From Candidatus Shapirobacteria bacterium (lineage in GTDB: Bacteria > Patescibacteriota > Microgenomatia > UBA12405): DNA of 64,000 nucleotides. A program made the translations under genes and the position numbers. The stretch lies in NCBI GenBank assembly GCA_041659325.1, contig JBAZYN010000002.1, positions 64,513-128,512 of the forward strand. The letters run 5' to 3'. The notes below the pieces were generated by a model. That model did no database searches and had not been told where the DNA came from. It saw only the letters and a list, made by a program, of their open reading frames with translations. Each line of letters begins with the position of its first letter. Within the stretch, counting starts at the first letter, position 1. Shown here in pieces: positions 2,375 through 18,270 of the stretch.

Positions 2375-2845
2375 ATGAATTTAGGGGAGAGATTAAGAAA
2401 GTTAAAAGAAGCAATCGGGGGGATTACCGTTCAGCCTGGTAGCATTAGAATCGATTGTGGCGGCGGATCAACAAGATCTATTGGGGCAAGTGGGTATGCT
2501 GCGGTTTCGAGAACGGTCGAACCCGGAGTGATAGGAGTGTCCGGAGCAACATGGGATACCAAAGCCGGAACGGCAGATCAGGTAGAACCCCCAATTACTA
2601 GAATCGCTGGACTTGATGAGACTTTTAATTTAATTGGGGGTGATATGGTATTAAACCAACCGGATTTAGATGGCAAAGGTAGAGTAAGGGGGACAAGCCC
2701 AATTATGACCTTTAGCGTGTTTGTTCCTACTGAGGCGATTAAAGTACAGGGAGGAGTAGTAACGCTGAGACAGGCAGCCGGCGGTGGCAAACAAACAAAA
2801 GGAGAAGAGAGAAAGAAAGGCCCCGGGATAGTGACGATCGAGTAA
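2375..2845 (+). CDS. hypothetical Gly-rich protein (first gene of GC-rich island)
   Basis: 156-aa ORF in a region of clearly elevated GC; no known motif. Confidence 0.35.
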   Translation: MNLGERLRKLKEAIGGITVQPGSIRIDCGGGSTRSIGASGYAAVSRTVEPGVIGVSGATWDTKAGTADQVEPPITRIAGLDETFNLIGGDMVLNQPDLDGKGRVRGTSPIMTFSVFVPTEAIKVQGGVVTLRQAAGGGKQTKGEERKKGPGIVTIE

Positions 2846-2915
2846 TGTGAACGTAACGGAATACGATGTTTTTTGATCTGGAGAAGAGATATACCGAAGA
2901 TTGTTCAGCCACCGG

Positions 2916-3629
2916 CTAATCCATAACGATTCGGGCGATGGCAGTTTCATTCGTGAGTACGGCGAATTGTTCACCGACTTCCTCGGCAGAGGCGGATAAG
3001 AAGCCGGCACGAGCACCGACTTCGAGAGCGAATCTTGTATCCCTAAAAAAATCAGCGTGAGCCTGGAGAAGGCCTGAACCGTTGCTGGAAGTGAGAAGAT
3101 TGACGCGAGCACCGAGACCCTGTGTCGTGAGCTCTAGCTGTACTCCCACAGAAAGATTACCTACGATAACCCGGGGATTTACAATGCCGTATTGACCTCG
3201 CGGAGTATCGGGGCTGGTCATTAGAACGCCGTTGGCCATAAATCTTTTTTGTACATTTTCGGCACCTGTCGCAGCTAATAAAAGTCCCATCTCTCCACGA
3301 GCTTTGAAGCCGGTGCCTTTTAGGGCATCAGCCGAAACTTCCAACAAGGTAAATGTATTGGTCTTTGTCGGATCATTTGGATCTGTAATGACAAAAGTAA
3401 ATAATTTGCCTCCAATGTCAATACCACCGGTGGTGAACTCAGCACCAAGTTTTGCCTGAACGGCCAGTTCATGGTGGTAAGGACGGACAACGGCTGGGGG
3501 AGCTTTTATTGGCGGGGGTAGGACTAATGCGGGGGCCCCGGGTGATGGGCCTCCTGACGGGGCGGCCGGTGGTTGGGCAGATTGATTTCCATTTGCCCAA
3601 TCTTTTATTCTTTCAGCGATGCTTGGCAC
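2916..3629 (-). CDS. hypothetical protein with Pro/Ala-rich N-terminus
   Basis: 237-aa ORF; an AT-rich divergent promoter region at 3630-3770 separates it from the + strand operon. Confidence 0.4.
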   Translation of the reverse strand: MPSIAERIKDWANGNQSAQPPAAPSGGPSPGAPALVLPPPIKAPPAVVRPYHHELAVQAKLGAEFTTGGIDIGGKLFTFVITDPNDPTKTNTFTLLEVSADALKGTGFKARGEMGLLLAATGAENVQKRFMANGVLMTSPDTPRGQYGIVNPRVIVGNLSVGVQLELTTQGLGARVNLLTSSNGSGLLQAHADFFRDTRFALEVGARAGFLSASAEEVGEQFAVLTNETAIARIVMD

Positions 3630-3770
3630 GTATTGTATTGACTGTACTTTTTAAGTGTGATACTATTTCGTACCTATTTGATACGTAGTTATGTTGATTT
3701 TAATATAAAAATTATATTTGTCAACGGCATACGTATATACAAATAATAAACGTATATATAATAGTATAAA

Positions 3771-4256
3771 ATGATCAAGGACCGTTTAACAAATGTTTAT
3801 TATAGGGAAAGGTCGCTAGGGATAAGCTTGGGCCTGGAGGCAAGAACAACAGTTTTGGGTCAAGAAATTGGTGGTAGAATTGGTCCGATACAACTGGCAA
3901 GGGAGAGTGTAAGTGCAGGGGCCGAGAAACCAGGCGGGAGTTTAGTTTTTAAAAGAGTTACAAAATTTCCGGAAGTTTTCCCCATATTGGATTTAACTAC
4001 TAATGATAGTGGGGTGAATGTTACATACCGACAGCCGAACCGGGTTTCCGTTTTGTCACTGGTTCCGGGAATACAAGGCGGAGACCCACTTAAATTTCAT
4101 ATCGCTCAAGGTGTGGGGGCCGGAGCAGTTGAAGGGGCAGTCGCGGGAAACAGAGTGTCGTTGAGTACAGTGTTTGATCAAACTAGCGGTGGAACACTAA
4201 GAATTGATATACCCAAGGGGGTAGAACCTGATTTTAATATTTTAGTTAGAGTTTAG
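3771..4256 (+). CDS. hypothetical protein
   Basis: 161-aa ORF, first of six contiguous non-overlapping + strand ORFs in the GC-rich island. Confidence 0.4.
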   Translation: MIKDRLTNVYYRERSLGISLGLEARTTVLGQEIGGRIGPIQLARESVSAGAEKPGGSLVFKRVTKFPEVFPILDLTTNDSGVNVTYRQPNRVSVLSLVPGIQGGDPLKFHIAQGVGAGAVEGAVAGNRVSLSTVFDQTSGGTLRIDIPKGVEPDFNILVRV

Positions 4257-4264
4257 ATAACCAT

Positions 4265-4780
4265 ATGCCAGGCTCAGCTGAACAATATCTACTAAGAGCG
4301 GGGGTGATCGGTAATAGAAATAGTGGGGGCGGGCAACCGGCAGAAACAAACGGCGGGCAACAACAACCGGCTAACGGTGATGTAACCATTAGTGTGAGCC
4401 GAGGGGTTGGGAACATAGCTGATCTTACAGGGGCAGCCAATATATTGAAGATTTTAAGAGATCTAGAAGGAGATCCCGACCATCCGGAAATTACTTCTGG
4501 GGTGGTTGCAGATGCGGCCCAAAGAGTAGCATTGGAGCTTGCACATCCGGAGATAGCAGCACTCACAAAGAGTGTTCTTGGTCCTAAAAACGGTTCGATT
4601 CCTATCCCCCAGAACTTATTGTGTATGCCACAAGTTAAGGAAACGGTAGAAGCCATACAAAATGCCCCAAGACCTCAAACGGCGGCGGTTGCCCCGCAGA
4701 AAAGAGGATCGCTGATTGGATCGGTTCTAGATATATTTAATCCCCTGCCCAGACGGAAAAACGATCCGGGCTGGCATTAA
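4265..4780 (+). CDS. hypothetical Gly/Gln-rich protein
   Basis: 171-aa ORF with tight spacing to its neighbours. Confidence 0.4.
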   Translation: MPGSAEQYLLRAGVIGNRNSGGGQPAETNGGQQQPANGDVTISVSRGVGNIADLTGAANILKILRDLEGDPDHPEITSGVVADAAQRVALELAHPEIAALTKSVLGPKNGSIPIPQNLLCMPQVKETVEAIQNAPRPQTAAVAPQKRGSLIGSVLDIFNPLPRRKNDPGWH

Positions 4781-4795
4781 CAATTTATAAAATAA

Positions 4796-5902
4796 ATGTC
4801 GTCAATTGAACAATTATTTAACAGTCCGGTTGTAATTGCAGGCGGAGTGGCCGCCAGTGCAGCAGTAGCGGCACAAATTGCCAGAGCGACAACGGATCGA
4901 GTTAATGAAGGCGAGGTTTACCTTAGACGAAATAATATAACCGGAAAATTTAGTGTTGACTTGGATCCGAGAAAAGTAGAGTCGGTTGTAATAGGAATGC
5001 AGGCGGTAGAAGTGATGGACATAATGGGTGACAACGGACAAAGAGCAACGATAGCAGTTGACCGCACTATGAGAGAAGTATTGGATGATCCCATACAGTT
5101 TGCAGCGTTTAGAAAAAGATACGGAGTTCCCGATGCTGATAAAAGAGGTGGTCGGTCGATAAAAACACGAATAGAGGAACATGTTCCGGTTCGCGAAAAT
5201 GTGCCGGTGGCAGCTACCGGCATAAGATTCAGGCTTCCCTGGATAGAATCAGTGGCAGTGGTCACTTTGGGACAAAAGTTTATCAATCCCGCTGAAGATG
5301 GAATGAGGGCATTAGTTGGAGGTAAAAATGGAGATGTAGAGGTTCAACCTGATGTGTTGGTAACATACGATGTTCCGGCGGCGAGATTACCATTGGCAAT
5401 ACAAAAGTTACCAAAACCAGTGCCTAGACAAGGTGACCCACCCGATCCCAGAAATAGTGGTCAGTACGCTCTAGACGAAGTCGGGAAGGCAGTAAGTGGC
5501 TTAACTAAAAGTGCCATAACGGCCGCTTTCGGTAAAATACAGTTTGAACAATTGACATCAGCAAAAGGCGGCGGTGTCGAAACGGTGCAGAAAGAGATTG
5601 TTGCAGCATTTTATGACAATTTTAGGGATAGTGGTTTAGCCGGTATAGCCAATGTGCAGAAAGTACAACTACAGAGCATCAGAACAGGGGAATATGGTTT
5701 GACTTTGACAAGATTGGCAGGTCAAGCTGCTGAAAAGGACCAGCTTGGGCCAGAATTATTTGGTCAAAAAACATTAATGCAAGCGATGACCGGAGGCAAG
5801 GGGTCGTCAGTCATTATTACAGATCCAGGGTTAAGTGGATTTACTGCTGCCCAGATAGCCGCCCGAAATAGTGCCGGTGGTCGAGCAGGGGGGGAGGCAT
5901 AA
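4796..5902 (+). CDS. hypothetical protein
   Basis: 368-aa ORF, Ala/Gly-rich, no recognisable domain. Confidence 0.45.
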   Translation: MSSIEQLFNSPVVIAGGVAASAAVAAQIARATTDRVNEGEVYLRRNNITGKFSVDLDPRKVESVVIGMQAVEVMDIMGDNGQRATIAVDRTMREVLDDPIQFAAFRKRYGVPDADKRGGRSIKTRIEEHVPVRENVPVAATGIRFRLPWIESVAVVTLGQKFINPAEDGMRALVGGKNGDVEVQPDVLVTYDVPAARLPLAIQKLPKPVPRQGDPPDPRNSGQYALDEVGKAVSGLTKSAITAAFGKIQFEQLTSAKGGGVETVQKEIVAAFYDNFRDSGLAGIANVQKVQLQSIRTGEYGLTLTRLAGQAAEKDQLGPELFGQKTLMQAMTGGKGSSVIITDPGLSGFTAAQIAARNSAGGRAGGEA

Positions 5903-5903
5903 T

Positions 5904-6515
5904 ATGGGAAGAATAATGGATGCACTTGGAAGATTGGGTGAAGCGAAAAAGGCGCAAGTAAAGGTAGAATTTGGGGATATCGATGCTTTACCGGAAAACC
6001 AGCGACGATGGAACGGGTTGGTGCTCCGGACGAGACTAGCCGCTGTCGATGTCCAAACAAAATTTCAACAGGGAGCATATGTAGTGAATCAATTTACGGG
6101 GGTGGCAAGACATCTTGATACCGTAACGTCATCAGTCGGAGCAGGAGTAATGACTGGTGACATTTTAACCCGGCTTGGCGCTGGAGGTATTGGTAGTACT
6201 TTGGGAGGAGGAGCGGGAGCCCTTTGTGCGGGGGCGTTGGTGGTGACTCTGTCAAAAGGGTCTGTCAAAGACGGTGAAGGTGTAGATAGTAGACCCGCTT
6301 TGGCGGGACGGGCAGTGTTGGGGGTGACATTAAGCGGTATAGCGGCAACCCAGGTTCCGATAGTTAGAGAGGCCGTAGTGGTCCCCGGCGATACTTTTCA
6401 AACGCTTGGTAATGCTGCCATCGTTGGCGTGGCGGTATCGACAGCCGCCCTTGTCTCGGAACTTGGACACATGATGACTGATGACTATTTTGATAAGCAA
6501 AAAGCAGAAAAATAA
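5904..6515 (+). CDS. hypothetical membrane protein with glycine-zipper segments
   Basis: ATG at 5904 (MGRIMD), GxxxG-rich hydrophobic stretches (GAGGIGSTLGGGAGALCAGALVV). Confidence 0.4.
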   Translation: MGRIMDALGRLGEAKKAQVKVEFGDIDALPENQRRWNGLVLRTRLAAVDVQTKFQQGAYVVNQFTGVARHLDTVTSSVGAGVMTGDILTRLGAGGIGSTLGGGAGALCAGALVVTLSKGSVKDGEGVDSRPALAGRAVLGVTLSGIAATQVPIVREAVVVPGDTFQTLGNAAIVGVAVSTAALVSELGHMMTDDYFDKQKAEK

Positions 6516-6552
6516 TAAATTATTATTTATTAACATTTAACAAAATATAATT

Positions 6553-6822
6553 ATGACTAATGTACCATCACGAAGAGAGAGGGAGGGGCTTACAAGTTTA
6601 CCTATAGTAGGGGGAATTGTTGGTGCACTCGTACGTATCGCGGACATGGTCACCACAAGAGGGATGGAGGGAGATATCAGTTATTCAACCGGGACTAGCT
6701 CGGGAATAGTACGGGCAGAGGGTGGAAGTGTAGATGTAAGTGGAATTACCGTGCGAGACGGTAGCGTTACGGGGCATGTTGTGGAAGAGCATGCACATGT
6801 GGAGATACATATAAGAAAATAA
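6553..6822 (+). CDS. hypothetical small protein
   Basis: 89-aa ORF within the island operon. Confidence 0.3.
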   Translation: MTNVPSRREREGLTSLPIVGGIVGALVRIADMVTTRGMEGDISYSTGTSSGIVRAEGGSVDVSGITVRDGSVTGHVVEEHAHVEIHIRK

Positions 6823-6873
6823 TCTGTTTATTAGAAAATAAGAAAATGACTGCTGAATCGGGGGGAGGCAACG

Positions 6874-7911
6874 ATGGCTACTAAATCAGAGACTGCGGCT
6901 GAGAGATATAGACAAAGACAACAAGCGGAGGCGGCACAAAAAAGTATGCCAACCGAGACTGTCGGCAGGGCGATGCAGATTGCTGAAGAGAATCCCGGGG
7001 CAGACGTATATGTCCGAAGAGATGAAGATGAGATGAGGGCGCAATTAAGGGCAGGAAGAAGGGGTGGCCGCATTAATACGGGACTATTTTCGGCACAGAG
7101 AGTAGGTCACACGGTACATACAGTTGAGGAACAAATTTCGATGGAAAGAGGTGGTAGACAAACGGAGGTATATGGACGCGGGGAAAGGGTAGAAATATCC
7201 GAAGGTACGGTAGGAAGAGGGACGAGAATTGGTGGAGTCGATAATAATACAGGTCTGGAGACGGGGCAGTGGCATAGCCGAGGGAGAGAGCGGGTAGCGA
7301 CTACATCGATAGTACGCACAGAGAATTCCGGGGGTAGCGTGGATAGACAGGGAGGGTTGACAGTCCAGACAGAGAGGCAGAATTTAGTTACACTCGGCCT
7401 AAGATTATTTTTTCCAAAGGCGTGTTTGCAATCAAGAACTTCTGTATCTAGTAGCGGAATTTATGAACCGACGGAACCGATAACTATAGATGCAAGAAAA
7501 GCATTGGTCCCCGAAGCGATAGGGACCTTTATAGGAAATATGGATGTAATTGCCGGATCAATCGGGGCGGGGGTGATCGGAAATGCTATTGGTGGGGTTA
7601 TTCCAAATTGCAGCGACTCCGTACAACTTGCCGGGGCGGTGACCGCAGCAGTGATTGGAGGTGGGGCGTTGGCAGCAATGGGCCATAGCTCCAATCTGAT
7701 AGATAACGGAGGGATGCGGCTGGCTTTGGGCGTAGGCTTGTCGGCGATAGGCTCGACGGTAATTCCGGGAATTGACAATATGGTCCGCGGCGGGAATTTT
7801 CTTGAATCAGCCGGAAATGCGGCGCTGGCCGGGATAGTGATTGGAGTGACGACAATGACTGTAAGAACTATTGAGGGAAAGGTAAAGCAGTTCCTCCCTG
7901 CTGAAAAATAA
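6874..7911 (+). CDS. hypothetical protein with C-terminal glycine-zipper membrane domain
   Basis: 345 aa; charged Arg/Glu-rich N-terminal half; the C-terminal 150 aa contain repeated GxxxGxxxG motifs. Confidence 0.45.
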   Translation: MATKSETAAERYRQRQQAEAAQKSMPTETVGRAMQIAEENPGADVYVRRDEDEMRAQLRAGRRGGRINTGLFSAQRVGHTVHTVEEQISMERGGRQTEVYGRGERVEISEGTVGRGTRIGGVDNNTGLETGQWHSRGRERVATTSIVRTENSGGSVDRQGGLTVQTERQNLVTLGLRLFFPKACLQSRTSVSSSGIYEPTEPITIDARKALVPEAIGTFIGNMDVIAGSIGAGVIGNAIGGVIPNCSDSVQLAGAVTAAVIGGGALAAMGHSSNLIDNGGMRLALGVGLSAIGSTVIPGIDNMVRGGNFLESAGNAALAGIVIGVTTMTVRTIEGKVKQFLPAEK

Positions 7912-7959
7912 AAAAAAGGTGTTTTGTGTTTTCGGATATTAGGAAGCCTAAACAAAATA

Positions 7960-7999
7960 TTAGCAATCACTTGACAAGACTGCTAATTGTTTTTAAAAT
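7960..7999 (+). promoter_or_regulatory. clpB promoter. -35 TTGACA (7971-7976), 17-nt spacer, -10 TAAAAT (7994-7999). Overlapped by a CIRCE-like inverted repeat TTAGCAATC-N9-GACTGCTAA (7960-7986)
   Basis: Read directly. The inverted repeat matches the HrcA CIRCE consensus TTAGCACTC-N9-GAGTGCTAA at 16 of 18 positions, and the ATG is 6 nt after the -10. Confidence 0.5.
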
Positions 8000-8005
8000 A
8001 GGGTT

Positions 8006-10453
8006 ATGGAACAACCCAAATTTACTCAACTGGCGGCCGAGACACTGCAGCGGGCAGTGGATGAGGCCAGAGCCAGGAAGAATCCGGAAGTTGATATCCC
8101 CCACCTGAAGTGGGCACTACAAAATATTGACGGACCGGCTAAAGAAATCCTAAAAGAGAGTCAGCCGGAAGATTTGGATCGGTTACCAAAAGTTGAAGGA
8201 GGAAATGAGCCACAAATATCCCGACTGTTGCAACAAAAACTTGGTGAAGCGGTAAGAGAAAGCCAAAAACGGGGCGATAGTTTTGTCAGCCAGGAAATGC
8301 TTTTGTGGGCAGTATTTGAGGATAGTAAAATAAGACAGGAAATAGAAAATTTACGAGGAGGAAAAACAGTGGATTCAGAAAGCAAAGAACAAAGCTATAA
8401 GGCATTGGAAAAATATACGACCGACCTGACGGCGCTGGCTCGAAGTGGAAAATTGGATCCGGTAATTGGGCGAGAAGAAGAAATCAGGCGGGTGATGCAG
8501 GTGCTTTCCAGACGAACGAAAAATAACCCGGTTTTGGTGGGAGATCCGGGGGTGGGAAAGACAGCAATAGTGGAAGGACTGGCAAACCGAATCGTGAGCG
8601 GGGATGTGCCGGAGTCGCTGAAAAACAAAAAAATACTTACCTTGGAGATTTCATCCCTTTTGGCGGGAGCAAAATATCGGGGAGAATTTGAAGAGAGGCT
8701 GAAATCGGTAATTGATGAAGTGGTAAAAAGTGAGGGCAAGGTGGTCTTGTTTATCGACGAACTGCATACGATTGTGGGGGCCGGAGGGGCAGAGGGGTCG
8801 GTAGATGCAAGTAATATGCTAAAGCCGGGACTAGCGAGGGGAACCTTGAGAGTTATCGGGGCAACAACTTTGAATGAATATAGAAAATATATTGAGAAAG
8901 ACTCGGCCCTCGAGCGGAGATTTCAGCCGGTAATGGTGGGTGAGCCAAATGTGGAAAACACGATTTCGATTTTGAGAGGGTTAAAAGAAAAATATGAGAT
9001 ACACCATGGGATCAAAATTACCGATGCAGCGCTGATTGCGGCGGCAAAGCTGTCTGACCGGTATATCCGGGACAGGTTTTTGCCCGACAAGGCAATTGAT
9101 CTGGTAGATGAGTCAGCATCGGCCCTAAGAATTCAAATGGAATCTTCCCCAGTAGAAATAGACAGCCTGGAAAGAAGGGTGCGGCAACTGGAAATTGAAG
9201 CCAAAGCGCTAAAAAAAGAAAAAAGTGAAGAATGTAAACTAAGACTGGATGAAGTGGAGAAGGAAATGGCTGAAGAAAAGGAGAAATTAACAAAACTAAG
9301 ATCTCTTTGGAGCAATCAAAAAGACATTTTGAAAAAAGTACAGGATCAAAAGGAAGAGCAGGACAAACTTAAATCGGACCTGGAACAGGCGGAAAGAAAT
9401 TTGGAGCTTGATAAGGCGGCAGAAATAAAATACGGCCGGATTCCGGAGGTGCAAAAGAAGCTGGCAGAGGCAGAAAAGAAATGGCAGTCTGTCGACAAAG
9501 AGGACCGGCTGGTAAAACAGGAAGTGGATGAGGATGATATTGCCAGAGTGGTATCAAAGTGGACCGGGATACCGGCTTCGAGAATGCTTAAGTCGGAAAC
9601 CGATAAACTGAAAAATCTGGAAAAATTAATCAGGGAGCGGGTAGTTGGCCAGGATGAGGCGGTAGAAGCGGTAGCCAATGCGGTAAGAAGATCGAGGCTA
9701 CATTTGGGAGAAAGTGATAAGCCGACGGCCACCTTTTTGTTTTTGGGCCCGACAGGGGTGGGAAAAACAGAAACAGCCAAGGCGTTGGCTGAACAATTGT
9801 TCAATGACGAAAAAGCACTGGTGCGGATTGATATGTCGGAATACAGCGAAGCACACACGGTGGCAAGGCTGATTGGGTCCCCTCCCGGCTATGTGGGGTA
9901 TGAGGAAGGCGGACAATTAACGGAGGCGGTGAGAAGAAAACCGTACACAGTTGTGCTATTGGATGAGATTGAAAAGGCCAATCCCCAAATATTTAGTATC
10001 TTTTTGCAGGTTTTTGATGACGGAAGGCTGACGGACGGCAAGGGACGGACGGTTGATTTTTCCAATACAGTAATTATCATGACTTCGAATTTACCGGAAG
10101 AGATGGTGGACAAAGTTTTCAGACCTGAGTTTTTGAATAGAATTGACAGAATTATAATCTTTAACAAGCTGTCGGAAAAACAACTGGAATTGATCGTGGA
10201 AATTCAAATTGCCAACCTAATAAAAAGGTTAAAAGAGCAAAATATCGTTTTGACAGTAACAGAAAAGGGCAAAAAATATTTGGCGAAAAATGGGTATGAC
10301 CCGGTTTTTGGGGCCAGACCTTTAAAGAGGTTAATACAAAACGAGTTGGTGGACCCAATCGCCATGCTGTTACTTGACAGCGAAGAGGGAGAAAGCATGG
10401 GGGTGGTGGCCGATGAAAAGGACGGAAAGTTAAGCGTAAAATTGATGGACTAA
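8006..10453 (+). CDS. clpB: ATP-dependent chaperone ClpB
   Basis: 815 aa; two AAA+ modules (GDPGVGKT, GPTGVGKT), long coiled-coil middle domain, ClpB/Hsp104 architecture. Confidence 0.95.
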   Translation: MEQPKFTQLAAETLQRAVDEARARKNPEVDIPHLKWALQNIDGPAKEILKESQPEDLDRLPKVEGGNEPQISRLLQQKLGEAVRESQKRGDSFVSQEMLLWAVFEDSKIRQEIENLRGGKTVDSESKEQSYKALEKYTTDLTALARSGKLDPVIGREEEIRRVMQVLSRRTKNNPVLVGDPGVGKTAIVEGLANRIVSGDVPESLKNKKILTLEISSLLAGAKYRGEFEERLKSVIDEVVKSEGKVVLFIDELHTIVGAGGAEGSVDASNMLKPGLARGTLRVIGATTLNEYRKYIEKDSALERRFQPVMVGEPNVENTISILRGLKEKYEIHHGIKITDAALIAAAKLSDRYIRDRFLPDKAIDLVDESASALRIQMESSPVEIDSLERRVRQLEIEAKALKKEKSEECKLRLDEVEKEMAEEKEKLTKLRSLWSNQKDILKKVQDQKEEQDKLKSDLEQAERNLELDKAAEIKYGRIPEVQKKLAEAEKKWQSVDKEDRLVKQEVDEDDIARVVSKWTGIPASRMLKSETDKLKNLEKLIRERVVGQDEAVEAVANAVRRSRLHLGESDKPTATFLFLGPTGVGKTETAKALAEQLFNDEKALVRIDMSEYSEAHTVARLIGSPPGYVGYEEGGQLTEAVRRKPYTVVLLDEIEKANPQIFSIFLQVFDDGRLTDGKGRTVDFSNTVIIMTSNLPEEMVDKVFRPEFLNRIDRIIIFNKLSEKQLELIVEIQIANLIKRLKEQNIVLTVTEKGKKYLAKNGYDPVFGARPLKRLIQNELVDPIAMLLLDSEEGESMGVVADEKDGKLSVKLMD

Positions 10454-10462
10454 GAGGTGGGG

Positions 10463-10468
10463 TATAAT
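10463..10468 (+). promoter_or_regulatory. -10 box TATAAT immediately upstream of tRNA-Arg
   Basis: GGTATAAT lies 9 nt before the tRNA 5' end. Confidence 0.4.
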
Positions 10469-10476
10469 AGAGCACC

Positions 10477-10550
10477 GTACCCGTAGCTTAACTGGATAGA
10501 GCACTCCCCTCCGAAGGGAGTGATTGGAGGTTCAAATCCTCTCGGGTACA
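10477..10550 (+). tRNA. tRNA-Arg (anticodon CCG)
   Basis: Acceptor GTACCCG/CGGGTAC, anticodon stem CTCCC/GGGAG with loop CTCCGAA, T-arm GGAGG-TTCAAAT-CCTCT, no encoded CCA; paralogous to the tRNA at 383. Confidence 0.8.
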
Positions 10551-10586
10551 CTCAAACAGTATAAAGTCTAAAAGTCTAAAAATATT

Positions 10587-11087
10587 ATGGAAGATCAAAT
10601 AACAATTATTAAAGATAACCTTTATTACGACGAGAGATCGGCGGGGGGCTTGGTCTACAAAATTGAAAACGGAAAGACTCTGTGGCTTTTGATAAAAACC
10701 ATAAGCGGGGCCAAAAAAAACGGGCAAAAAGCAATTCATAAGTTCCCAAAAGGCCATTTGCAGAGAGATGAGTTTTTAAAACAAGCGGCATTAAGAGAGG
10801 TGGAGGAAGAGGGACAGGTTAAGGCGAAAATTGTCTCGAAAATTGGCTCAAATAATTACATAATCTGGGACAAGCTCCGAAAGAAAAAAATTATAAAAAA
10901 GGTAACGTTTTTTTTGATGGAGTACGCGGGGCAAAGCAATCTCAAGCATTACGATACAGAAATGGTGCTGGATCGGGAGTGGCTACAGTATGATGATGCT
11001 TGTGAAAAATTGGCATATGATTCGGAAAAAGTTTTGCTGAAAAGAGCCAGGATAAAACTTGAGGAGTTACAGAAAAAAAGCAGGTGA
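10587..11087 (+). CDS. NUDIX hydrolase
   Basis: Nudix box GHLQRDEFLKQAALREVEEEGQV. Confidence 0.75.
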   Translation: MEDQITIIKDNLYYDERSAGGLVYKIENGKTLWLLIKTISGAKKNGQKAIHKFPKGHLQRDEFLKQAALREVEEEGQVKAKIVSKIGSNNYIIWDKLRKKKIIKKVTFFLMEYAGQSNLKHYDTEMVLDREWLQYDDACEKLAYDSEKVLLKRARIKLEELQKKSR

Positions 11088-11147
11088 GTTTGGGGGCTTT
11101 TCAATGGTATACTATGAAGTATTTTGACCAGTAATCAGGTATAAATC

Positions 11148-11160
11148 AGGAGAGGTCGGA
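11148..11160 (+). repeat. 13-nt direct duplicate (AGGAGAGGTCGGA) of the 5' end of tRNA-Ser(GGA), 89 nt upstream of the gene
   Basis: Exact repeat seen at 11148-11160 and 11238-11250. Confidence 0.6.
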
Positions 11161-11238
11161 CCCTCCTTCGCTCGAACGGAGCTTCGGACGGGCGAAGTAG
11201 TGGTATCCACGCCGCTGGGTCGATAAAATACAAAGTGA

Positions 11239-11326
11239 GGAGAGGTCGGATAGTGGTTCATTCCACAGACCTGGAAAGTCTGCGCTCCAAAAGGGCTCGC
11301 GGGTTCGAATCCCGCCCTCTCCGCCA
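11239..11326 (+). tRNA. tRNA-Ser (anticodon GGA), type II
   Basis: Acceptor GGAGAGG/CCTCTCC, anticodon stem CAGAC/GTCTG with loop CTGGAAA, long variable arm, T-arm GCGGG-TTCGAAT-CCCGC, encoded CCA. Confidence 0.8.
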
Positions 11327-11480
11327 CGTAAAATTTGCTTTGCAAATTAATGTGGCTGAGACGTGAACGTAATATTTTACGAAGTAAAATTAACGTTCTT
11401 ACGTCTCGCCTAATTAACTCAACGCTGCTGGAACGTAAATTTCGAAGAAATTGTACGTTACCGCCAATTTAAAATCGCAT
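11319..11480 (+). repeat. Repeat R copy B, downstream of tRNA-Ser(GGA)
   Basis: CTCCGCCACGTAAAATTTGCTTTGCAAATTAATGTGGCT followed by the palindrome GAGACGTGAACGTAATATTTTACGAAGTAAAATTAACGTTCTTACGTCTC; homologous to 539-700. Confidence 0.7.
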
Positions 11481-11530
11481 TTTACCATCCTGCTTCGACG
11501 GACAAGGTCCGCTAAAAAGGTAAGTAAGCT

Positions 11531-11731
11531 ATGAAATATTCAAGCAAACAGGATTTAGAATCGATAATTGAACGGATATGTGGCGGTAAATGTACTAGAC
11601 AGGATATAAAGTTGATGCTATTTGATATCAGAGAATTTTTAGCCAAAGACAGTCCTCTGGGTGATATTGCCGATTGTATCCATTCAACAAGAAACAGGGA
11701 AATGCTTTATCCAGAATTGGAAGTCATGTAG
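11531..11731 (+). CDS. hypothetical small protein
   Basis: 66-aa ORF. Confidence 0.25.
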   Translation: MKYSSKQDLESIIERICGGKCTRQDIKLMLFDIREFLAKDSPLGDIADCIHSTRNREMLYPELEVM

Positions 11732-11928
11732 ATAATTTTCTCTCTGTAGCAATAAATTCGGGAGTTATTGTAGTTAGACCCATTTACGATCCAATTCAAC
11801 TAATAACAGAACTAACCTTGACTTTAACTAAATTGGGCTTTACATATGATGTGAACATTATTAAATCGTATACTACTACCATCATCGAATTTATTTCCGA
11901 GTTCTTGGATGATACAAAAATAGATTAA
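11674..11928 (+). CDS. hypothetical small protein
   Basis: 84-aa ORF overlapping the previous one; at most one of the two is likely real. Confidence 0.2.
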   Translation: MYPFNKKQGNALSRIGSHVDNFLSVAINSGVIVVRPIYDPIQLITELTLTLTKLGFTYDVNIIKSYTTTIIEFISEFLDDTKID

Positions 11929-12016
11929 AAAATAATAAAGTTTTGGATTTCCAAAGATGAATTGGCAAAATTGAGTGAATTAGATTTTTTTAAAGATTTC
12001 ATTGATATAATAAGTT

Positions 12017-12796
12017 ATGGGAGTAGATGAAGAAGGTTCGGAAGTTTCTGACCCTCTGTTGTTGGTAAGAACAATGGAGGACAGTTGGGTCGACTGCGGA
12101 CGTAAAATCGACGACACGGGGTGGCAGAGAATAACAGAAATGGCACGATTAATTTACGGTGACGCTATGGCCGTTTCTGGAGTTGACACAGAAACTGCAG
12201 AAAGGTATGTTCGCATGGCTTATAGCGATAGAGACGATGTACCCAGCGAATGGTTTGGAAGTGAAGGAACAGATGACGAAAGGGTTGTAGAAGCCCAAGG
12301 AAAAATTATTTTAGCCTGTTTAGAAGAAGGAGGTAGGTATCCCCCCGAAGATAGACGACGTTTAGTACTTCAAAAAATGGCCCAAGATTTGTTTGAAAAT
12401 GATTTATTTTCGATTGGTGTAACCCCAAGTGGTAGTGAATATGTTGTCTCTTCCCCTATAAACCGAAGCGGGTTGACGGGTACGGGCGGAGAAACATGGG
12501 TTATTAGAAATATTGCCGGAAAAAATCATATTACGCCCAGCGCCAGATCAGGCATGATAGGAAGAGCATGTTTCAGCCCGGTGATTGTTGGTATTCCTGG
12601 GGCAGAAAAGAGACGTAATAGAAGTCTCCGAGGTCATTCTCCAGAAGATGTATCTTCGGGGGGGACAGGGCCTGGGATAATAATAAAATACACAGTGTAT
12701 GAACCAGAAAGATTACCCAGTTGTTCGATAGCGGTGGGAACACAAACCGATGAACGGTTAAGTCCTCTTCGATATTCTTTAAGATTCGACCAGTAG
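12017..12796 (+). CDS. hypothetical protein (GC-rich segment)
   Basis: 259-aa ORF in the second GC-elevated segment. Confidence 0.4.
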   Translation: MGVDEEGSEVSDPLLLVRTMEDSWVDCGRKIDDTGWQRITEMARLIYGDAMAVSGVDTETAERYVRMAYSDRDDVPSEWFGSEGTDDERVVEAQGKIILACLEEGGRYPPEDRRRLVLQKMAQDLFENDLFSIGVTPSGSEYVVSSPINRSGLTGTGGETWVIRNIAGKNHITPSARSGMIGRACFSPVIVGIPGAEKRRNRSLRGHSPEDVSSGGTGPGIIIKYTVYEPERLPSCSIAVGTQTDERLSPLRYSLRFDQ

Positions 12797-12854
12797 AAAA
12801 ATTTTCAAACGCACACCGCTTAATTTTTCTAATGTTACAATACCGATATCTACT

Positions 12855-14150
12855 ATGAGTTCTAAAGATCGACTTTTAATTGGGCAAGGTCCCGGACATC
12901 AAGACCAGCTTATCTCTATTACTGACCGACTCAGAGCAAGCATGACTAATGAAGAAGTTGTCTTTAGCCCGGCTTCTCAGGAGGTGATCAATAGTTTTGC
13001 CCAAGCGAATCAACAGCGTTTTCCTTCTATCTTAGATACTTGTATTGAAGCCTATGAGGCGTCTCTGGGAAGCCAACCTCCCGGGCATGAAAAATCCCAT
13101 ATTGTTGAAAATTTGAACCTAGCCCTCCAGATTTTTGGTCAATACCGCACCTCCGGAAATCCACTCACTAAAGTTGAAGAGTTAGAAGTCGCTCTGGCTA
13201 TCATCGGACATGATTTAGGTAGATACGCCGAACCATCTTTACCTAAAATTAACGAGAAGGATTTGGAAATACTCGGACCAATTTTTCTTGGTAGAAAATT
13301 TCTTCGCGACTTAAATATCCCGGATGAACTCGGCAATCGCATTCTTTATGATATAGCCTCTGCCTCAAATCCAAGGACTGAGCACCGCACAGCAAATATT
13401 GTCCATAGGTGTGATCGCATCCAGCTAGGTGGAGCTGTGATGATTCCTCGTCTGGTCGGACTTGGTATTGGTGAACTCGGGCCGGAAGGCTGTGATTTTA
13501 TCGTGCATCCACCAGAAGTGGCCGGGCAATTTCGGGATAATCTGCCTCATATTTACAAAGAGAGAACCTTGGCGTTACTTACTCGGTTGGAATTTTGGAT
13601 GAGAAATGTTTATCCACCTACTCGCCCGGAGGAATCTGTTAACGATGATCGAAGGAAACTAGAGACCGCCGTTCTGTTAATGCTTGGAATGCATGGCATG
13701 GATGATGTGTACAAAGAAGTATTTGCCCCGGAACTTGGCCTTGTTTCCGATCCTAAGCCATTTAAAAGACCTATTGATCCTGAATTATTCAAAGCGGCCA
13801 GGGAAGAACATACCGCCTTTATATCCCAGGTTAATCTTTCTTCTTATAGTGACCAAGGTTCATTAGAACTGGCTACGAGATTAATGGAAACCGAAAATGT
13901 CACTATTTTACCGGATTTCGCTGATCACTTTCGGGAGCGGTTGGAAAAAAGTTCTCCTGAAACTAACCGTAATCGTTGGTTGGTTATGCTTTACTCCCTT
14001 GAGACTCGACACCAAAAAAGGTTGGCTGATATTTCTCGTCTTCAACATAAGGAACAAGGGGGGGCTTTGGACCCTCTCGAGTCTTGGATCAGAGCAGAAC
14101 TCGTCGACCGAGAAGAAAAGTATTCTGCTATTTTCGAACCTTCAACTTAG
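12855..14150 (+). CDS. hypothetical protein, possible HD-domain hydrolase
   Basis: 431 aa; an H...HD...H...D pattern (AIIGHDLGR, HRCDRIQ) is suggestive only. Confidence 0.4.
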   Translation: MSSKDRLLIGQGPGHQDQLISITDRLRASMTNEEVVFSPASQEVINSFAQANQQRFPSILDTCIEAYEASLGSQPPGHEKSHIVENLNLALQIFGQYRTSGNPLTKVEELEVALAIIGHDLGRYAEPSLPKINEKDLEILGPIFLGRKFLRDLNIPDELGNRILYDIASASNPRTEHRTANIVHRCDRIQLGGAVMIPRLVGLGIGELGPEGCDFIVHPPEVAGQFRDNLPHIYKERTLALLTRLEFWMRNVYPPTRPEESVNDDRRKLETAVLLMLGMHGMDDVYKEVFAPELGLVSDPKPFKRPIDPELFKAAREEHTAFISQVNLSSYSDQGSLELATRLMETENVTILPDFADHFRERLEKSSPETNRNRWLVMLYSLETRHQKRLADISRLQHKEQGGALDPLESWIRAELVDREEKYSAIFEPST

Positions 14151-14201
14151 TAGTTGCCAACTATCCAAGGTTGTGAATTTAGGTGCCAAACGGCTTTGAG
14201 T

Positions 14202-14264
14202 CATAAAACAGGTTCTAACTGCGTGGTTCGATAAACTCATCATTATAATCAACAGTTCGCCGCC
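14202..14264 (+). repeat. S-repeat copy 1 (box A CATAAAACAGGTTCTAACTGCGT; degenerate or duplicated box B ...CAGTTCGCCGCC)
   Basis: Member of an 8-copy intergenic repeat family. Confidence 0.7.
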
Positions 14265-14576
14265 AAATTTCTATTTCCCCTTGTTGTTCCGTGTACCATA
14301 GGTTTCATGGTGGCGTATCAATGAATGGCACTCGAAGCTGGTAACAAACTTTCATTGGCTACATCGAGAAAGGTGACCGAAACCCTTCGGCCTAAACAGC
14401 GGCCAAAGTAGCCAAGGTTTTGGTAGTGTCAGAAGAGGAAGTATTTAAGTCGATCATATAGAGGCTCCTAACTATGGGGTATCCTCTACTCAATCGTCGT
14501 GATGTACTTCATTATATTGTTAATTATTCTGTAGTTCCGTATAATCTGATTGCTACCATATAGGGTAGCTTTTTTT

Positions 14577-17558
14577 ATGCCAAAATCATTTGACGATTTA
14601 TTAGATAAAGACCAAATTAAAGAGAGACTGGTAACTGTGGTGGATGCGGAATTGGCTGACAAGATCTCCGAGAAGTTTTGGAGACTGGATTCTTTTGCTA
14701 ACTTGATTTCAATTCCCTTTTTTTTAAACTTTTTGGTTGATTTTCTAAAGGAAACGAGGCTAAAGGGCACATTTAGTAAATATGACTTTTACGGATATCT
14801 ACTTAGAAAAGTGTCTGGTGGCGGTGAATTTTTAGATAAATTAACACAGCTCGCTTTGGTCGTGGAACTGCACCAGGTTAATGAGTTTGACCCGACTGGA
14901 TTTAGTGGAATACTAAACGGCCTTGGAATCAATTCGGAAGATTTAGAGCGGACTGGTTTAATAGAAAAAGACAAAAGGGATGAAAAAGATGTGATCGGTT
15001 TTTGCCACCATACAATTTCCGAATTTTTAGTAGCTAACTTTTTGTTCGGACAGGACGATTTTATCGATAAGTTGGAAAAATTTGCTTTGGTTAAAGATGA
15101 TAAAAATGTATTGGCGATTGCCTTTTCTTGGTATGGGGTAATTAGGTTCTTATTAGACAGCGACAAAAGCATTGAGGTCCGAAATTGGCTGTTAAAACTG
15201 GTGGAGGGCAATAAAGAGTTGGTTGATGATGGTTTTTGTAATGCGATTACTTCTGTTGAATCTAAAGATTTATCCCAAAAAGAGAAAAAATATATTTTTG
15301 ACCTGGTTTATGATACTTATCAGGGTAAAAAGGTATGGTTGCCAATTTGGACCAGAGTCGGGTTGCCTAATTTTTGCGGAAAAGACAGCTATGAGAAGCT
15401 CAAGGTTGATGTTCAAAATGGTAGTGGAACAGAAAGTGATGTCTTGGTGAGAAAAGGAACGGCAGTAGATATAGTTGCCAGATTAATGGAAAGCAATTCC
15501 CCTCTCATCGCCGGTAGTGAAAAAGAATGGTGGAAAGAAAAGTTGGTTGACCTCGCCAACGATGGTAATGACAATGGGGTGGTCCAGAGACACGCTTTGA
15601 CAGCGTTGGCAACTTATCATGACGTGGGTCTCATACCAAGACTGGGGAGATGTCTTAGCCACAAGGATAACCTGGTGAGGGAGGCGTTTATTCAATTTTG
15701 CTCGGAGACTAATCCTAACGATGAGACAACAATCAATCTGTTAGTGAAGGGAATTGTAGAGAAAGGAACGGATATTTACTCGCGACACGGATTTTACCAA
15801 ATTACATCAAAAGAAGGGGTAAAAGTATTTTTAAAACACCTGGTTAATAGTTCTCATTTCCTGAAAAAGTTCCTAGATAAGGAAAGTATTTTTAATAGTA
15901 AAGACAAAAACTCAGATGAGGTTATTGTTAAAAGAATCGAAGAGTTTACAGATACCGAGATTATTGGGCAACTTAAGCAAATTATTAAAAACTCCTTTGA
16001 ACAGGGTGAAATATATGATCAGGGACGGTCATATTTTCTCAAGAGACTAGCTTTAGTTACAGGAATAAATTACCCAGAGTATATTTTTGAACTGATTGAA
16101 AGGATTAGGGAAAGTGACGGGGATAAATGGGGATTAGCATACGATTATAGTGATCTTTTTTCTTGGCTGATAACCACAGAAAATGTAACGGAATTTTATA
16201 AACGGCTTAGTGGTATCAATGAACGTTGTAAAAGGCTCGCAGAAAAGGTGATATATGGCACTAGGTACGGAGACGAGGCTGTCTATAAGACAGCTGTCAA
16301 AAATAGACTGGTAACTAAGATAGAGGACCTTGAGGATCATGTACAGAACCGTGACAGAGATGGAGAAATTCTTAAAGAATTTCGACAGTTTTTGGGGACC
16401 GATAGTGACAAAAAATATTTTCCGTCAGTATTTGAGTATTTTGTCCAAAACCAGAAACTGATCACATCGAAATGGACGAAGCAAGAAAAGGAACGATTAA
16501 AAAAATTGGTAATAAATGAAGGGCTTGAGAAGATTGATCCTAAAAATATTGTAGTAAAAATTCAAAAGAGTGAAGGCGGTAGGGCTAATCAGTACAATAT
16601 TTCAAGAGTGGCGTCATATTTTGGAGACGTGGTAAGGACAGCAATAGTATTAGGATTAAACCTTAATAAATACAGACAAAAGATTATCAACTTTATCCCA
16701 TTTGCCTATTCCGACGATAGGCAGGCAATAAGTGAAGTTGTTGATCAAATAGAAGATAAAGATTTGGCGTGGGTCAACCAAGCCTATGCTGATAAAACTG
16801 GCGATATTAGGTATTTTTTACCGGACTCATATATATATTTAGTTCGAGACTATCGGGAGAAAGGTTGCGAACTTGGTTCAGCAAAAGAGATACTATTGTC
16901 TTTTGCTATAGACGGTGGATTGAGCAACCAGGACAGAAGGTATGCGGTTGAAACACTAGGGGAAATGGTGGACCAAAGTGATTTAGAGATCAAGGATGAA
17001 CTCGAAAAGGATTTAGGGTCAGAAGAAGTTAATAAAGTAGCAATGGATGTATTAATTGCAGTATTTAAAGATGATAGAGCGATAAAAGAAAGAATCGGAC
17101 AGATTAAGGCATGGTCAACAGAAGCAGAAAAATACGCAGTACCAGAATCGGGGGTTTGTCATTCAGTGTCTTCTGTTGAAGAAGAAATGGATGGAATGTC
17201 TTTAGCACAACCACTAATGAAAATGGGTGACGATCGGTACAAAAATGAATTTATCGGTCTTTTAAATTATTCAGTTGAAATATTAAAAGATGATGAGAAA
17301 AAGGAAGTTTTGTGGACCTATGTGAATTACTTATGGAGAACCGTTATTGGATATTTTAACGGATTAGAGAACAAAAACTTTGAGATTATCGGGGAATTGG
17401 AGGACTGGTTAGTCAAAAACAGAGACGTTGATAAGGTTAACTGGTTCGAAGGGAGATTGGTCACACTAAAGCAGTCCTACATAGAAGAAAGTAGTAAAAA
17501 AACCACTAGTAAAGCATTACGAATTATCACAGAAATATATGGCCATATTCATGACTGA
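14577..17558 (+). CDS. large HEAT/ARM-repeat protein with an N-terminal NACHT-like remnant (5'-truncated STAND NTPase?)
   Basis: FCHHTISEFLVANFL resembles the NACHT motif F-x-H-x-S-x-QEFLAA; an upstream PFFLNFL motif resembles the NACHT PLLL motif; there is no Walker A. The frame is closed by TGA at 14547. The ORF-track start is TTG at 14550, with ATG at 14577. Confidence 0.5.
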   Translation: MPKSFDDLLDKDQIKERLVTVVDAELADKISEKFWRLDSFANLISIPFFLNFLVDFLKETRLKGTFSKYDFYGYLLRKVSGGGEFLDKLTQLALVVELHQVNEFDPTGFSGILNGLGINSEDLERTGLIEKDKRDEKDVIGFCHHTISEFLVANFLFGQDDFIDKLEKFALVKDDKNVLAIAFSWYGVIRFLLDSDKSIEVRNWLLKLVEGNKELVDDGFCNAITSVESKDLSQKEKKYIFDLVYDTYQGKKVWLPIWTRVGLPNFCGKDSYEKLKVDVQNGSGTESDVLVRKGTAVDIVARLMESNSPLIAGSEKEWWKEKLVDLANDGNDNGVVQRHALTALATYHDVGLIPRLGRCLSHKDNLVREAFIQFCSETNPNDETTINLLVKGIVEKGTDIYSRHGFYQITSKEGVKVFLKHLVNSSHFLKKFLDKESIFNSKDKNSDEVIVKRIEEFTDTEIIGQLKQIIKNSFEQGEIYDQGRSYFLKRLALVTGINYPEYIFELIERIRESDGDKWGLAYDYSDLFSWLITTENVTEFYKRLSGINERCKRLAEKVIYGTRYGDEAVYKTAVKNRLVTKIEDLEDHVQNRDRDGEILKEFRQFLGTDSDKKYFPSVFEYFVQNQKLITSKWTKQEKERLKKLVINEGLEKIDPKNIVVKIQKSEGGRANQYNISRVASYFGDVVRTAIVLGLNLNKYRQKIINFIPFAYSDDRQAISEVVDQIEDKDLAWVNQAYADKTGDIRYFLPDSYIYLVRDYREKGCELGSAKEILLSFAIDGGLSNQDRRYAVETLGEMVDQSDLEIKDELEKDLGSEEVNKVAMDVLIAVFKDDRAIKERIGQIKAWSTEAEKYAVPESGVCHSVSSVEEEMDGMSLAQPLMKMGDDRYKNEFIGLLNYSVEILKDDEKKEVLWTYVNYLWRTVIGYFNGLENKNFEIIGELEDWLVKNRDVDKVNWFEGRLVTLKQSYIEESSKKTTSKALRIITEIYGHIHD

Positions 17559-18270
17559 CAAAGATGGCCACAATGCTGAATTGAGGTCTGACCGAGAGTA
17601 TCAACCTTATCCTTCTACCGCCAATGAGAAGAGTATAACTGAAGAGCATGTTTTGCGAGATGACCGCCCGATTCCAACACGACCTGTATGTAGAGTGGAG
17701 AGTGTCGACGAAATTTACGGCAAGGTTGTCGCGTTCAGTACCGGACAAGGCCAGGAAAATCCATTGACTGAAAGCGATAATCAGAGTGCAGAAACTGAGA
17801 ACGATACCATCAAAGGGGAGGAAGATCGTTGTATGGAGTTTAAATCTTCCCTAAGGTGGGATTACCACCAAAGTAAAGTGAACACAGAACTTGAGCTTGA
17901 GGTTATTATAGAGATGGCCGCTTTTCTAAATACTAAAGGAGGACAGGTTATAATTGGGGTGAATGATGAAGGGTGTATTCTAGGACTTGATAACGACTTT
18001 AAAACTTTAGGAAAAAAGCAAAATAGAGATGGTTTTGGGCTTCAATTGGATAATCTTATCAGTAATTTTTTGGGTGGCGGAGTTTATCCGTACATAACGC
18101 TGGAATTCCAACAAAAGAATGAAAAAGATATTTGTATAATAAGAGCCAAAAGATGTAACCATGAAGTTTATGTAGGAAAAGATAGGGATTTTTATATTAG
18201 ACGGTTTAAATCCAAGGTGAAATTAAATAGCGAAGAAGCACATCGATATATTAATGAAAATTGGAGGTAA
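17539..18270 (+). CDS. AlbA_2 (Schlafen-like) domain protein
   Basis: EFK...W and GG.VIIGVNDEG.ILG motifs characteristic of Pfam AlbA_2; overlaps the upstream gene by 20 nt. Confidence 0.55.
   Translation: MAIFMTDKDGHNAELRSDREYQPYPSTANEKSITEEHVLRDDRPIPTRPVCRVESVDEIYGKVVAFSTGQGQENPLTESDNQSAETENDTIKGEEDRCMEFKSSLRWDYHQSKVNTELELEVIIEMAAFLNTKGGQVIIGVNDEGCILGLDNDFKTLGKKQNRDGFGLQLDNLISNFLGGGVYPYITLEFQQKNEKDICIIRAKRCNHEVYVGKDRDFYIRRFKSKVKLNSEEAHRYINENWR

Follow-up and report, generated by a model that had tools for sequence, protein, structure and literature searches.

An orphan gene cluster with a candidate SPFH-type protein in Candidatus Shapirobacteria

Eight adjacent genes, p1–p8, occupy positions 2375–7911 of the window, a 64,000-nucleotide (nt) stretch from a metagenome-assembled genome of Candidatus Shapirobacteria, a member of the Candidate Phyla Radiation (CPR). 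Each gene is called as a hypothetical protein, and GC content is raised across them. Is the region an acquired island, and what does it encode? The raised GC is fully accounted for by amino-acid composition, as Gly, Ala, Arg, Pro and Val have GC-rich codons. By protein alignment and gene order, at least p3–p6 form a conserved module, and p5 is probably a very divergent membrane-anchored SPFH/Band-7 (stomatin/prohibitin-like) protein. We give an even chance to the proposal that the genes are a native, lineage-restricted cluster of Candidatus Shapirobacteria encoding an SPFH-centred membrane scaffold operon.

Results

The eight open reading frames (ORFs) reported in the first-pass annotation agree with consecutive NCBI calls WC841_03520–03555. 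p1 (2375–2845, +, 156 amino acids [aa], WC841_03520) and p2 (2916–3629, −, 237 aa, GTG start, WC841_03525) had been described as a divergent pair. They converge instead, their stops lying at 2845 and 2916, and the true divergent pair is p2 and p3, which starts at 3771 on the forward strand. The AT-rich spacer between these two genes (3630–3770) is a predicted divergent promoter region. The six-gene forward operon that had been proposed is present and begins with p3 (3771–4256, 161 aa). It continues with p4 (4265–4780, 171 aa), p5 (4796–5902, 368 aa, identical to NCBI hypothetical protein WC841_03540 of a 335-kb contig), p6 (5904–6515, 203 aa, ATG at 5904 as in the NCBI call), p7 (6553–6822, 89 aa), and p8 (6874–7911, 345 aa). 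Gaps between p3 and p8 are 1–51 nt, and GGAGG lies 8 nt upstream of the p8 ATG. The locus was also recovered in a second assembly of this organism, where a 5-kb contig built from separate reads (SRR18595301) is 99.96% identical to it. When clustered at 90% identity, p1–p8 shared no cluster with a protein of any other contig.

Gene calls in the region had been considered uncertain. They were evaluated with a frame-specific codon model trained on 32 other window genes (mean 0.245 bits/codon, minimum 0.148). The eight called frames score 0.20–0.30 bits/codon, including p1 at 0.251, p2 at 0.256, p3 at 0.213, p4 at 0.228, and p7 at 0.201, and the values for 14 overlapping alternative ORFs run from −0.26 to 0.19. 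The called frames thus score as host genes and above every alternative, NCBI concurs, and a second locus conserves part of the set, so the gene calls are sound. One antisense ORF opposite the Gly-rich end of p8 (7461–7970, −, 169 aa) scores 0.194, a value that lies among those of real genes. It most likely arises from GGN and GCN codons read backwards, but among the alternative calls it alone could not be cleanly dismissed.

GC content is 0.475 at 2375–7911 and 0.404 in the rest of the window, and the region is the maximum among all 5.5-kb segments (mean 0.410, standard deviation 0.034). The rise reported in the first-pass annotation is therefore real. Its edges were described as sharp and are not: the start at 2375 is gradual, and GC does not return at 7911. 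The clpB gene downstream has a GC content of 0.454, GC stays at 0.45–0.49 through it, and 1-kb bins up to 10 kb are still at 0.466. The level is back to about 0.41 only beyond 10 kb. A dip to about 0.41 coincides with the p2/p3 spacer.

GC and codon usage were quantified, as had been suggested with that annotation, and GC is non-uniform while codon usage is host-like. GC at third codon positions (GC3) is 0.35–0.44 in p1–p8, 0.30–0.49 in the other 40-odd long ORFs, and 0.39–0.47 in the immediate neighbours. Only codon positions 1 and 2 carry the excess (GC1 0.54–0.64, GC2 0.44–0.51). Synonymous-codon fractions of p1–p8 correlate with those of 32 other window genes at r = 0.92. Re-encoding p1–p8 with the synonymous usage of the rest of the window gives an expected GC of 0.501, compared with an observed coding GC of 0.488. 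Since GC3 and synonymous usage are host-like and amino-acid composition reproduces the GC, the region is not a compositional island, and the earlier suggestion of a possibly acquired one fails on this count. A GC bump in an AT-rich genome can be purely amino-acid-driven, and synonymous sites should be examined before an island label is applied.

The description of the products as Gly-rich holds. Each contains 11–17% Gly (13.0% across p1–p8), compared with 6.9% in 36 other window proteins. Combined Gly+Ala+Arg+Pro is 0.30–0.37 in each, compared with 0.207 ± 0.042 in 37 other window proteins, and Phe+Tyr+Met+Ile+Asn+Lys is 0.16–0.21, compared with 0.322. The proteins are also Val-rich and are depleted in Lys, Asn, Ile, Phe, and Tyr. 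The composition of these eight adjacent proteins, soluble ones included, is more extreme than nearly all else in the window. The only protein outside the cluster with the same bias is encoded by an ORF 4 kb downstream, past clpB (12017–12796, +, 259 aa; Gly+Ala+Arg+Pro 0.305, Phe+Tyr+Met+Ile+Asn+Lys 0.185, Gly 10.8%). It has no Pfam match, and neither does the next ORF (12855–14150, 431 aa).

Relatives are extremely few. A search of a word-indexed database of 5.8 billion proteins with p5 returned p5 alone. An exhaustive HMMER search of 1.84 billion sequences, chosen to represent about 15 billion proteins, returned one relative, P0002 (351 aa, 29% identity, E 3e-12), and the alignment of p5 with P0002 retrieved those two only from the word-indexed database. 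P0002 is encoded on L002, a 2.9-kb Logan metagenome contig from SRR22387775 with a GC content of 0.376. The genes of this contig encode 154, 172, 351, 205, and 43+ aa, in the order of p3 (161), p4 (171), p5 (368), p6 (203), and p7 (89), and their spacing is likewise tight. Smith-Waterman z scores were computed against 300 shuffles. p3 and its counterpart (L002 35–499) score z 22 with 30–32% identity (BLASTP E 6e-14), and p5 and P0002 score z 28. p6 and its counterpart q6 (L002 2115–2732) score z 5.5 and keep the block HLD....VGAGV. p4 and its counterpart (L002 506–1024, 172 aa) have 24% identity in a global alignment and a non-significant z of 1.4, and agree in position and length only.

No DNA-level similarity was found between the locus and L002. 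The L002 genes have their own low GC3 (0.23–0.25) and a Gly+Ala+Arg+Pro fraction of 0.28–0.31. From their low GC3 and the lack of DNA similarity, the module is long resident in two genomes of different composition.

Pattern scans for the p5 family returned nothing in GTDB genomes, JGI metagenomes, and IMG/VR. Scans for p6/p8, p2, p8, and the p3 family in genome, metagenome, and IMG/VR collections were likewise empty. By tblastn, p2, p5, and p8 have no match in 50,697 phage records, and p5 and p8 have none in 72,556 plasmid records. The 80 best clpB-anchored loci in GTDB species genomes belong to Actinomycetota, Chloroflexota, Pseudomonadota, and similar groups (50–59% identity), and none is from CPR. 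The island proteins have no tblastn match in those 80 loci. The absence of CPR among them probably reflects how candidates were selected by the pattern scan and not biology.

None of p1–p8 has an above-threshold family in Pfam, NCBIfam, PHROGs, or PADLOC, and none has a recognizable catalytic motif, as had been stated. The proposed remote-homology and structure-prediction checks gave a lead for p5 only, a weak one, to SPFH proteins. p5 consists of an N-terminal anchor (aa 7–29), an extra domain of about 85 aa, a putative SPFH domain at about aa 113–300, and a short C-terminal tail. It aligns to Pfam Band_7 (PF01145) with E 5.7e-4 and 20.4 bits, under the gathering cut-off of 23.6, and the excised domain scores 19.9 bits. 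An AlphaFold2 model was built from the two-sequence alignment and is of low confidence (mean predicted local distance difference test [pLDDT] 45.7). When this model was searched against the PDB with Foldseek, prohibitin, stomatin, or flotillin took the first four ranks and nine of the top 34 places, and isolated SPFH domains superposed with template modelling (TM) scores of 0.52–0.56 and root-mean-square deviations of 3.1–4.9 Å. Against BFVD, the top three and six of the top 11 matches are SPFH/Band-7 proteins. The PDB sequence search with the p5 profile returned nothing credible.

Two further alignments point to the start of the SPFH domain. Using hhalign, the p5 pair was compared with an alignment of E. 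coli QmcA, HflK, HflC, and YqiK, and p5 139–184 was placed on the PGLxFxxPFIdxV start block with E 0.11. By Smith-Waterman, p5 115–156 (KRGGRSIKTRIEE...ATGIRFRLPWIESV) aligns to HflC 23–65 (KEGERGITLRFGK...EPGLHFKIPFIETV) with z 3.6. SPFH proteins are expected to attach to the membrane at the N-terminus, and hydropathy predicts such an anchor in both p5 (1.76, aa 11–29) and its orthologue (2.07, aa 5–23). Positive charges come after the anchor helix of p5, and the positive-inside rule would therefore put most of the protein, SPFH domain included, in the cytoplasm. Taken together, p5 is a probable SPFH/Band-7 protein.

p6 and p8 are related to each other. In p6, a charged N-terminal region precedes a helical domain rich in Gly, Ala, and Val. 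In p8, the first 136 or so residues form an extension rich in Arg, Glu, and Gly, and the rest is a p6-like module with four predicted Gly/Ala-rich helices at its end (225–340). The two align with BLASTP E 1e-4, 29% identity over 121 columns, and a Smith-Waterman z of 7.0. A global alignment places p6 on p8 137–345, and both end in AEK. At the sequence level, p6 and the C-terminal 210 or so residues of p8 are paralogous domains. The p8 AlphaFold2 model, made with p6 as alignment, has four helices (225–242, 248–269, 279–303, and 309–340) and a pLDDT of 33.6, which makes it unusable. Hydropathy peaks are 1.58–1.61 in p6, 1.70–1.78 in p8, and only 1.35–1.51 in q6. Pfam and NCBIfam gave no hit at E ≤ 10 for p6, p8, or their excised C-terminal domains. 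p8 has no match in the PDB or in phage and plasmid records, and the p6 profile found nothing credible in the PDB. The first-pass annotation assigned GxxxGxxxG glycine zippers to both proteins. The strict motif occurs once in p6 (aa 97–105), is absent from p8, and occurs three times in p3, which is not hydrophobic. Neither p6 nor p8 has a glycine-zipper motif within a clear transmembrane helix.

Of the remaining operon products, p3 is soluble, strand-rich, and conserved in L002. It has no family match, and a PDB search with its profile returned nothing credible. p4 is soluble. p7 has one hydrophobic segment (aa 12–34, hydropathy 1.68) and a short Gly/Ser/Val-rich, strand-like tail that is weakly similar to p8 111–160 (E 0.02), and gave no hit to NfeD or any other family. 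p2, which is divergent from p3–p8, is rich in Pro and Ala over its N-terminal third and beta-rich in the domain that comes after it, and it has no family or PDB match. Its N-terminus, MPSIAE, resembles MPGSAE of p4 and MPSITE of the p4 orthologue (hhalign E 0.046, weak).

p1 is soluble, contains 17% Gly, and is a separate transcription unit convergent with p2. Residues 85–105 resemble the start of the OB domain of the E. coli NfeD protein YbbJ over 20 residues (z 3.2) with no Pfam support, which is a lead only. Profile comparison of p1 and p2 with the p3 family found nothing. Residues 9–30 of p1 (2375–2500), EAIGGITVQPGSIRIDCGGGS, mimic antibody VH/nanobody framework 1, and PDB matches of p1 to this framework were rejected as chance level (best E 0.018). 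The identification of p7 or p1 as NfeD was also discarded as unsupported: there is no Pfam hit, p7 has one hydrophobic segment, and p1 has none.

Promoter-like sequences were found in the spacer as consensus matches only. TTGACA-16-TAAAAT (3724–3697, −) matches at 11/12 positions, and TTGTCA-18-AATAAT (3718–3747) and TTGACT-17-TACTAT (3638–3666) are on the forward strand. A promoter-like TTGACT...TG-C-TAGAAT upstream of p1 was found by eye. The best site in the scanned region, TTGACA-17-TAAAAT (7971–7999, +, 11/12), belongs to clpB. Judged from this predicted promoter, the site is the downstream limit of the operon and clpB is outside the system. The link of clpB to the operon is positional and not transcriptional, because clpB has its own promoter-like site.

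Discussion

We propose that the core of the cluster is the operon p3–p8 (3771–7911), with the membrane-anchored p5 at its centre. By analogy with other SPFH proteins, p5 would oligomerize at the membrane. It could then organize or confine its partners, namely p6 and p8 (membrane-embedded or membrane-associated), single-pass p7, and soluble p3 and p4. The outcome would be a membrane-microdomain or envelope-integrity complex. The scaffold mechanism is inference only, and so is any part in physiology, for example in membrane stress, at which the adjacent clpB might hint although it has its own promoter-like site.

Several observations weigh against this proposal. The Pfam score of p5 is below the gathering threshold, and its orthologue has no Pfam hit at E ≤ 1. 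The model searched with Foldseek is poor, and none of its matches has an E value of 1e-3 or lower. With the hhalign E value of 0.11 included, each SPFH signal is sub-significant when taken singly. There is no apparent long C-terminal coiled coil of the sort from which SPFH cages are built, and the low-confidence model has helices only at 300–313, 322–331, and 351–360. Searches of p1–p8 and their sub-domains at E ≤ 10 detected no NfeD partner (PF01957). In p6 and q6, the Gly-rich segments are only marginally hydrophobic, and membrane insertion of p6 and p8 is a prediction. Homology of p4 to its L002 counterpart is positional. The family has just two members among about 15 billion proteins, which leaves neither covariation nor a phylogenetic profile to draw on. 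p2 is tied to the operon just by divergent transcription and the six-residue motif MP(S/G)(I/S)(A/T)E, and nothing links p1 to it.

A more specific form of the scaffold proposal is possible and we regard it as doubtful. p3–p8 might encode a CPR-restricted membrane complex in which a minimal SPFH-like scaffold, lacking a coiled coil and NfeD, organizes a new family represented by p6 and p8. p3, p4, and perhaps p2, through the MP(S/G)xxE motif, would be its soluble adaptors. If true, it would define an SPFH subfamily and a partner set that are both new, possibly tied to envelope maintenance or host contact in these ultra-small episymbionts.

The alternative that survives best, although also doubtful, is ancient acquisition from a GC-richer donor, with synonymous sites ameliorated and the amino-acid signature retained. 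It is compatible with the scaffold reading. The bias of p1–p8 is typical of GC-rich proteomes, each protein being at or above the maximum of 37 window proteins, and the family is extremely sparse. The tRNA-rich surroundings noted in the first-pass annotation are also real, and the cluster lies between two tRNA Arg-Ser pairs. Upstream are tRNA-Arg (383–459) and tRNA-Ser (462–546), followed by genes for diacylglycerol kinase (dagK, 764–1126) and QueH (queH, 1126–1644) and an HD-like ORF without a family assignment (1616–2311). Downstream, clpB (8006–10453, +, Pfam-confirmed) is followed by tRNA-Arg (10477–10551), a NUDIX hydrolase gene, and a second tRNA-Ser (11239–11326), the fourth tRNA. An Rfam scan found these four tRNAs and nothing else.

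Against acquisition, no GC3 or codon-usage signal remains. No integrase or transposase gene was found among the scanned flanking ORFs (6–2311 and 8006–18270), and no att-like repeats bound the region. The closest upstream tRNA is 1.8 kb away and the closest downstream one 2.6 kb, and dagK, queH, the HD-like ORF, and clpB intervene. Long direct repeats are confined to the sequences 3′ of the two tRNA-Ser genes, and these repeats enclose housekeeping genes. Finally, the sole orthologous cluster lies in an AT-richer contig and is likewise fairly rich in Gly+Ala+Arg+Pro, which suggests that the composition bias is at least in part a family or structural trait.

Clearly less probable is a module for anti-phage defence or abortive infection, or else the remains of a phage, with membrane-disrupting effectors under the control of an SPFH-like sensor or scaffold. 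The operon is orphan, fast-evolving, and patchy, with membrane-active-looking parts. A Schlafen/AlbA_2 gene lies 10 kb away, and viral genomes encode SPFH proteins. However, there are no PADLOC and no meaningful PHROGs hits, and the IMG/VR, phage, and plasmid searches described above were blank. The cluster encodes no nuclease, NTPase, or protease, and its immediate neighbours are housekeeping genes.

The first-pass annotation likened p6 and p8 to pore-forming or contact-dependent toxins. We consider it slightly less probable still that they are glycine-zipper pore-forming, bacteriocin-like, or contact-dependent toxins with neighbours as partners or immunity proteins. The likeness comes down to small-residue spacing in Gly/Ala-rich helices. 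p6 and p8 are paralogous, as toxin/immunity or two-peptide systems sometimes are, and CPR bacteria are episymbionts in which membrane-active effectors are plausible. The strict motif is nonetheless nearly absent, and q6 is less hydrophobic. p1–p8 include no signal peptide, large filamentous protein, or secretion or delivery domain, and no CdiA/CdiB or MafB family. Searches of Pfam at E ≤ 10 gave no Gly-zipper, CDI, Rhs, LXG, WXG, bacteriocin, or immunity family. Nor is there a phage or defence family by PHROGs or PADLOC, and the predicted topology would keep large soluble parts cytoplasmic.

That some or all of the ORFs are artefacts of long frames opened by high GC is very improbable: high GC1 and GC2 do open antisense ORFs of up to 169 aa, the best being 7461–7970, but the eight frames score like host genes and above each alternative, p3, p5, and p6 are protein-conserved in an unrelated contig with no detectable DNA similarity, p6 and p8 are paralogous in the called frames, and the tight operon spacing recurs in L002.

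On the scaffold reading, the cluster provides a CPR bacterium with a candidate for an extremely divergent SPFH-type scaffold and five uncharacterized partners. Should both the SPFH assignment and the complex prove correct, the known repertoire of SPFH operons would be extended. Otherwise, this is an uncharacterized orphan operon of a kind common in CPR genomes. Generality is low, with two occurrences among about 15 billion proteins. To our knowledge, membrane organization in CPR is essentially unstudied, and literature searches on SPFH proteins with CPR and with glycine zippers returned nothing relevant.

Other features of the window

The 100–150 nt 3′ of each tRNA-Ser gene (547–695 and 11325–11420, anticodons CGA and GGA) are 82–88% identical. 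Both contain strong predicted hairpins (z −4.8 and −6.2), are the two copies in the window, and have no Rfam family. In the long hairpin, two compensatory changes of base pairs separate the copies: GAAAC/GUUUC to GAGAC/GUCUC, and UUCUAC/GUAGAA to UUUUAC/GUAAAA. The element may serve both tRNA-Ser genes in termination or processing, or it may be left over from duplication of a tRNA Arg-Ser pair.

At 14550–18270 (+), a 1002-aa HEAT-repeat ORF overlaps a 243-aa Schlafen/AlbA_2 ORF by 20 nt, and the two may be a defence-type pair. A 681-aa ORF at 52267–54312 (−) has no Pfam match, a GC2 of 0.55, and a hydrophobic pilin-like leader, FGLTQIPLIIGLVIMALAIPIA. It encodes three Cys-rich repeats, SC.ASCS.DAQCSTG.C..D...G...CRNR.CPDY..C.C, with Thr/Pro-rich linkers between them. 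The product is probably a secreted or surface protein.

Comparison with known systems

p6 and p8 resemble glycine-zipper families (Gly-zipper_Omp, Gly-zipper_OmpA, Gly-zipper_YMGG, and GlsB/YeaQ/YmgE) in having small residues 3–4 apart and helices in two hairpin-like pairs. Unlike these families, they are much larger, have substantial soluble N-terminal regions, and nearly lack the strict motif. They have no family hit at E ≤ 10, and their marginal hydrophobicity is not kept in q6.

NfeD proteins have N-terminal hydrophobic helices and a C-terminal OB-fold. p7 is similar in having a hydrophobic N-terminal segment and a short all-beta-looking tail. NfeD proteins have about three segments and 140–150 aa, whereas p7 has one segment and 89 aa. 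Conservation among NfeD homologues is known to be very low; YuaF and PH0471, for instance, share 21% (PMC2636767).

Known SPFH proteins can confine other factors or recruit them, as in the SamG-SamH/SamI/PspA case. In Bacillus subtilis, SamG and SamH recruit the SPFH protein SamI in a PspA-linked membrane-stress module (bioRxiv 10.64898/2026.02.06.704340). The PspA-SamG-SamH-SamI system (YdjGHI) resembles the present cluster as a multi-gene operon of membrane proteins with an SPFH protein at the cytoplasmic face, linked to envelope stress. Here, the stress chaperone gene clpB is directly downstream, a link by position only. In contrast to that system, p1–p8 include no PspA/IM30 or other known family; the YdjG and YdjH sequences were not compared. 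SamI is cytosolic, whereas p5 carries its own anchor.

The closest comparison is with SPFH proteins themselves (QmcA/PH1511, HflK/HflC, and the flotillins FloA/FloT/YqiK). p5 differs from them in having about 85 extra residues between the anchor and the domain and no obvious long coiled coil or C-terminal cap. It is sub-threshold in Pfam, its orthologue is undetected there, and an NfeD partner, found in operons of subfamilies SPFH1, 2, and 5, is not detectable. Its five partners are in no described family, and none of the operon types of the 12 subfamilies fits (PMC2636767). Like SPFH proteins, p5 has a predicted N-terminal anchor, followed by a putative alpha/beta domain with a recognizable version of the start block EGE.G...R.G ... 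PG(L/I).F..P(F/W)I(E/D).V. Prokaryotic SPFH genes are mostly in operons with membrane partners (PMC2636767), and p5 is likewise in an operon with small, predicted membrane proteins.

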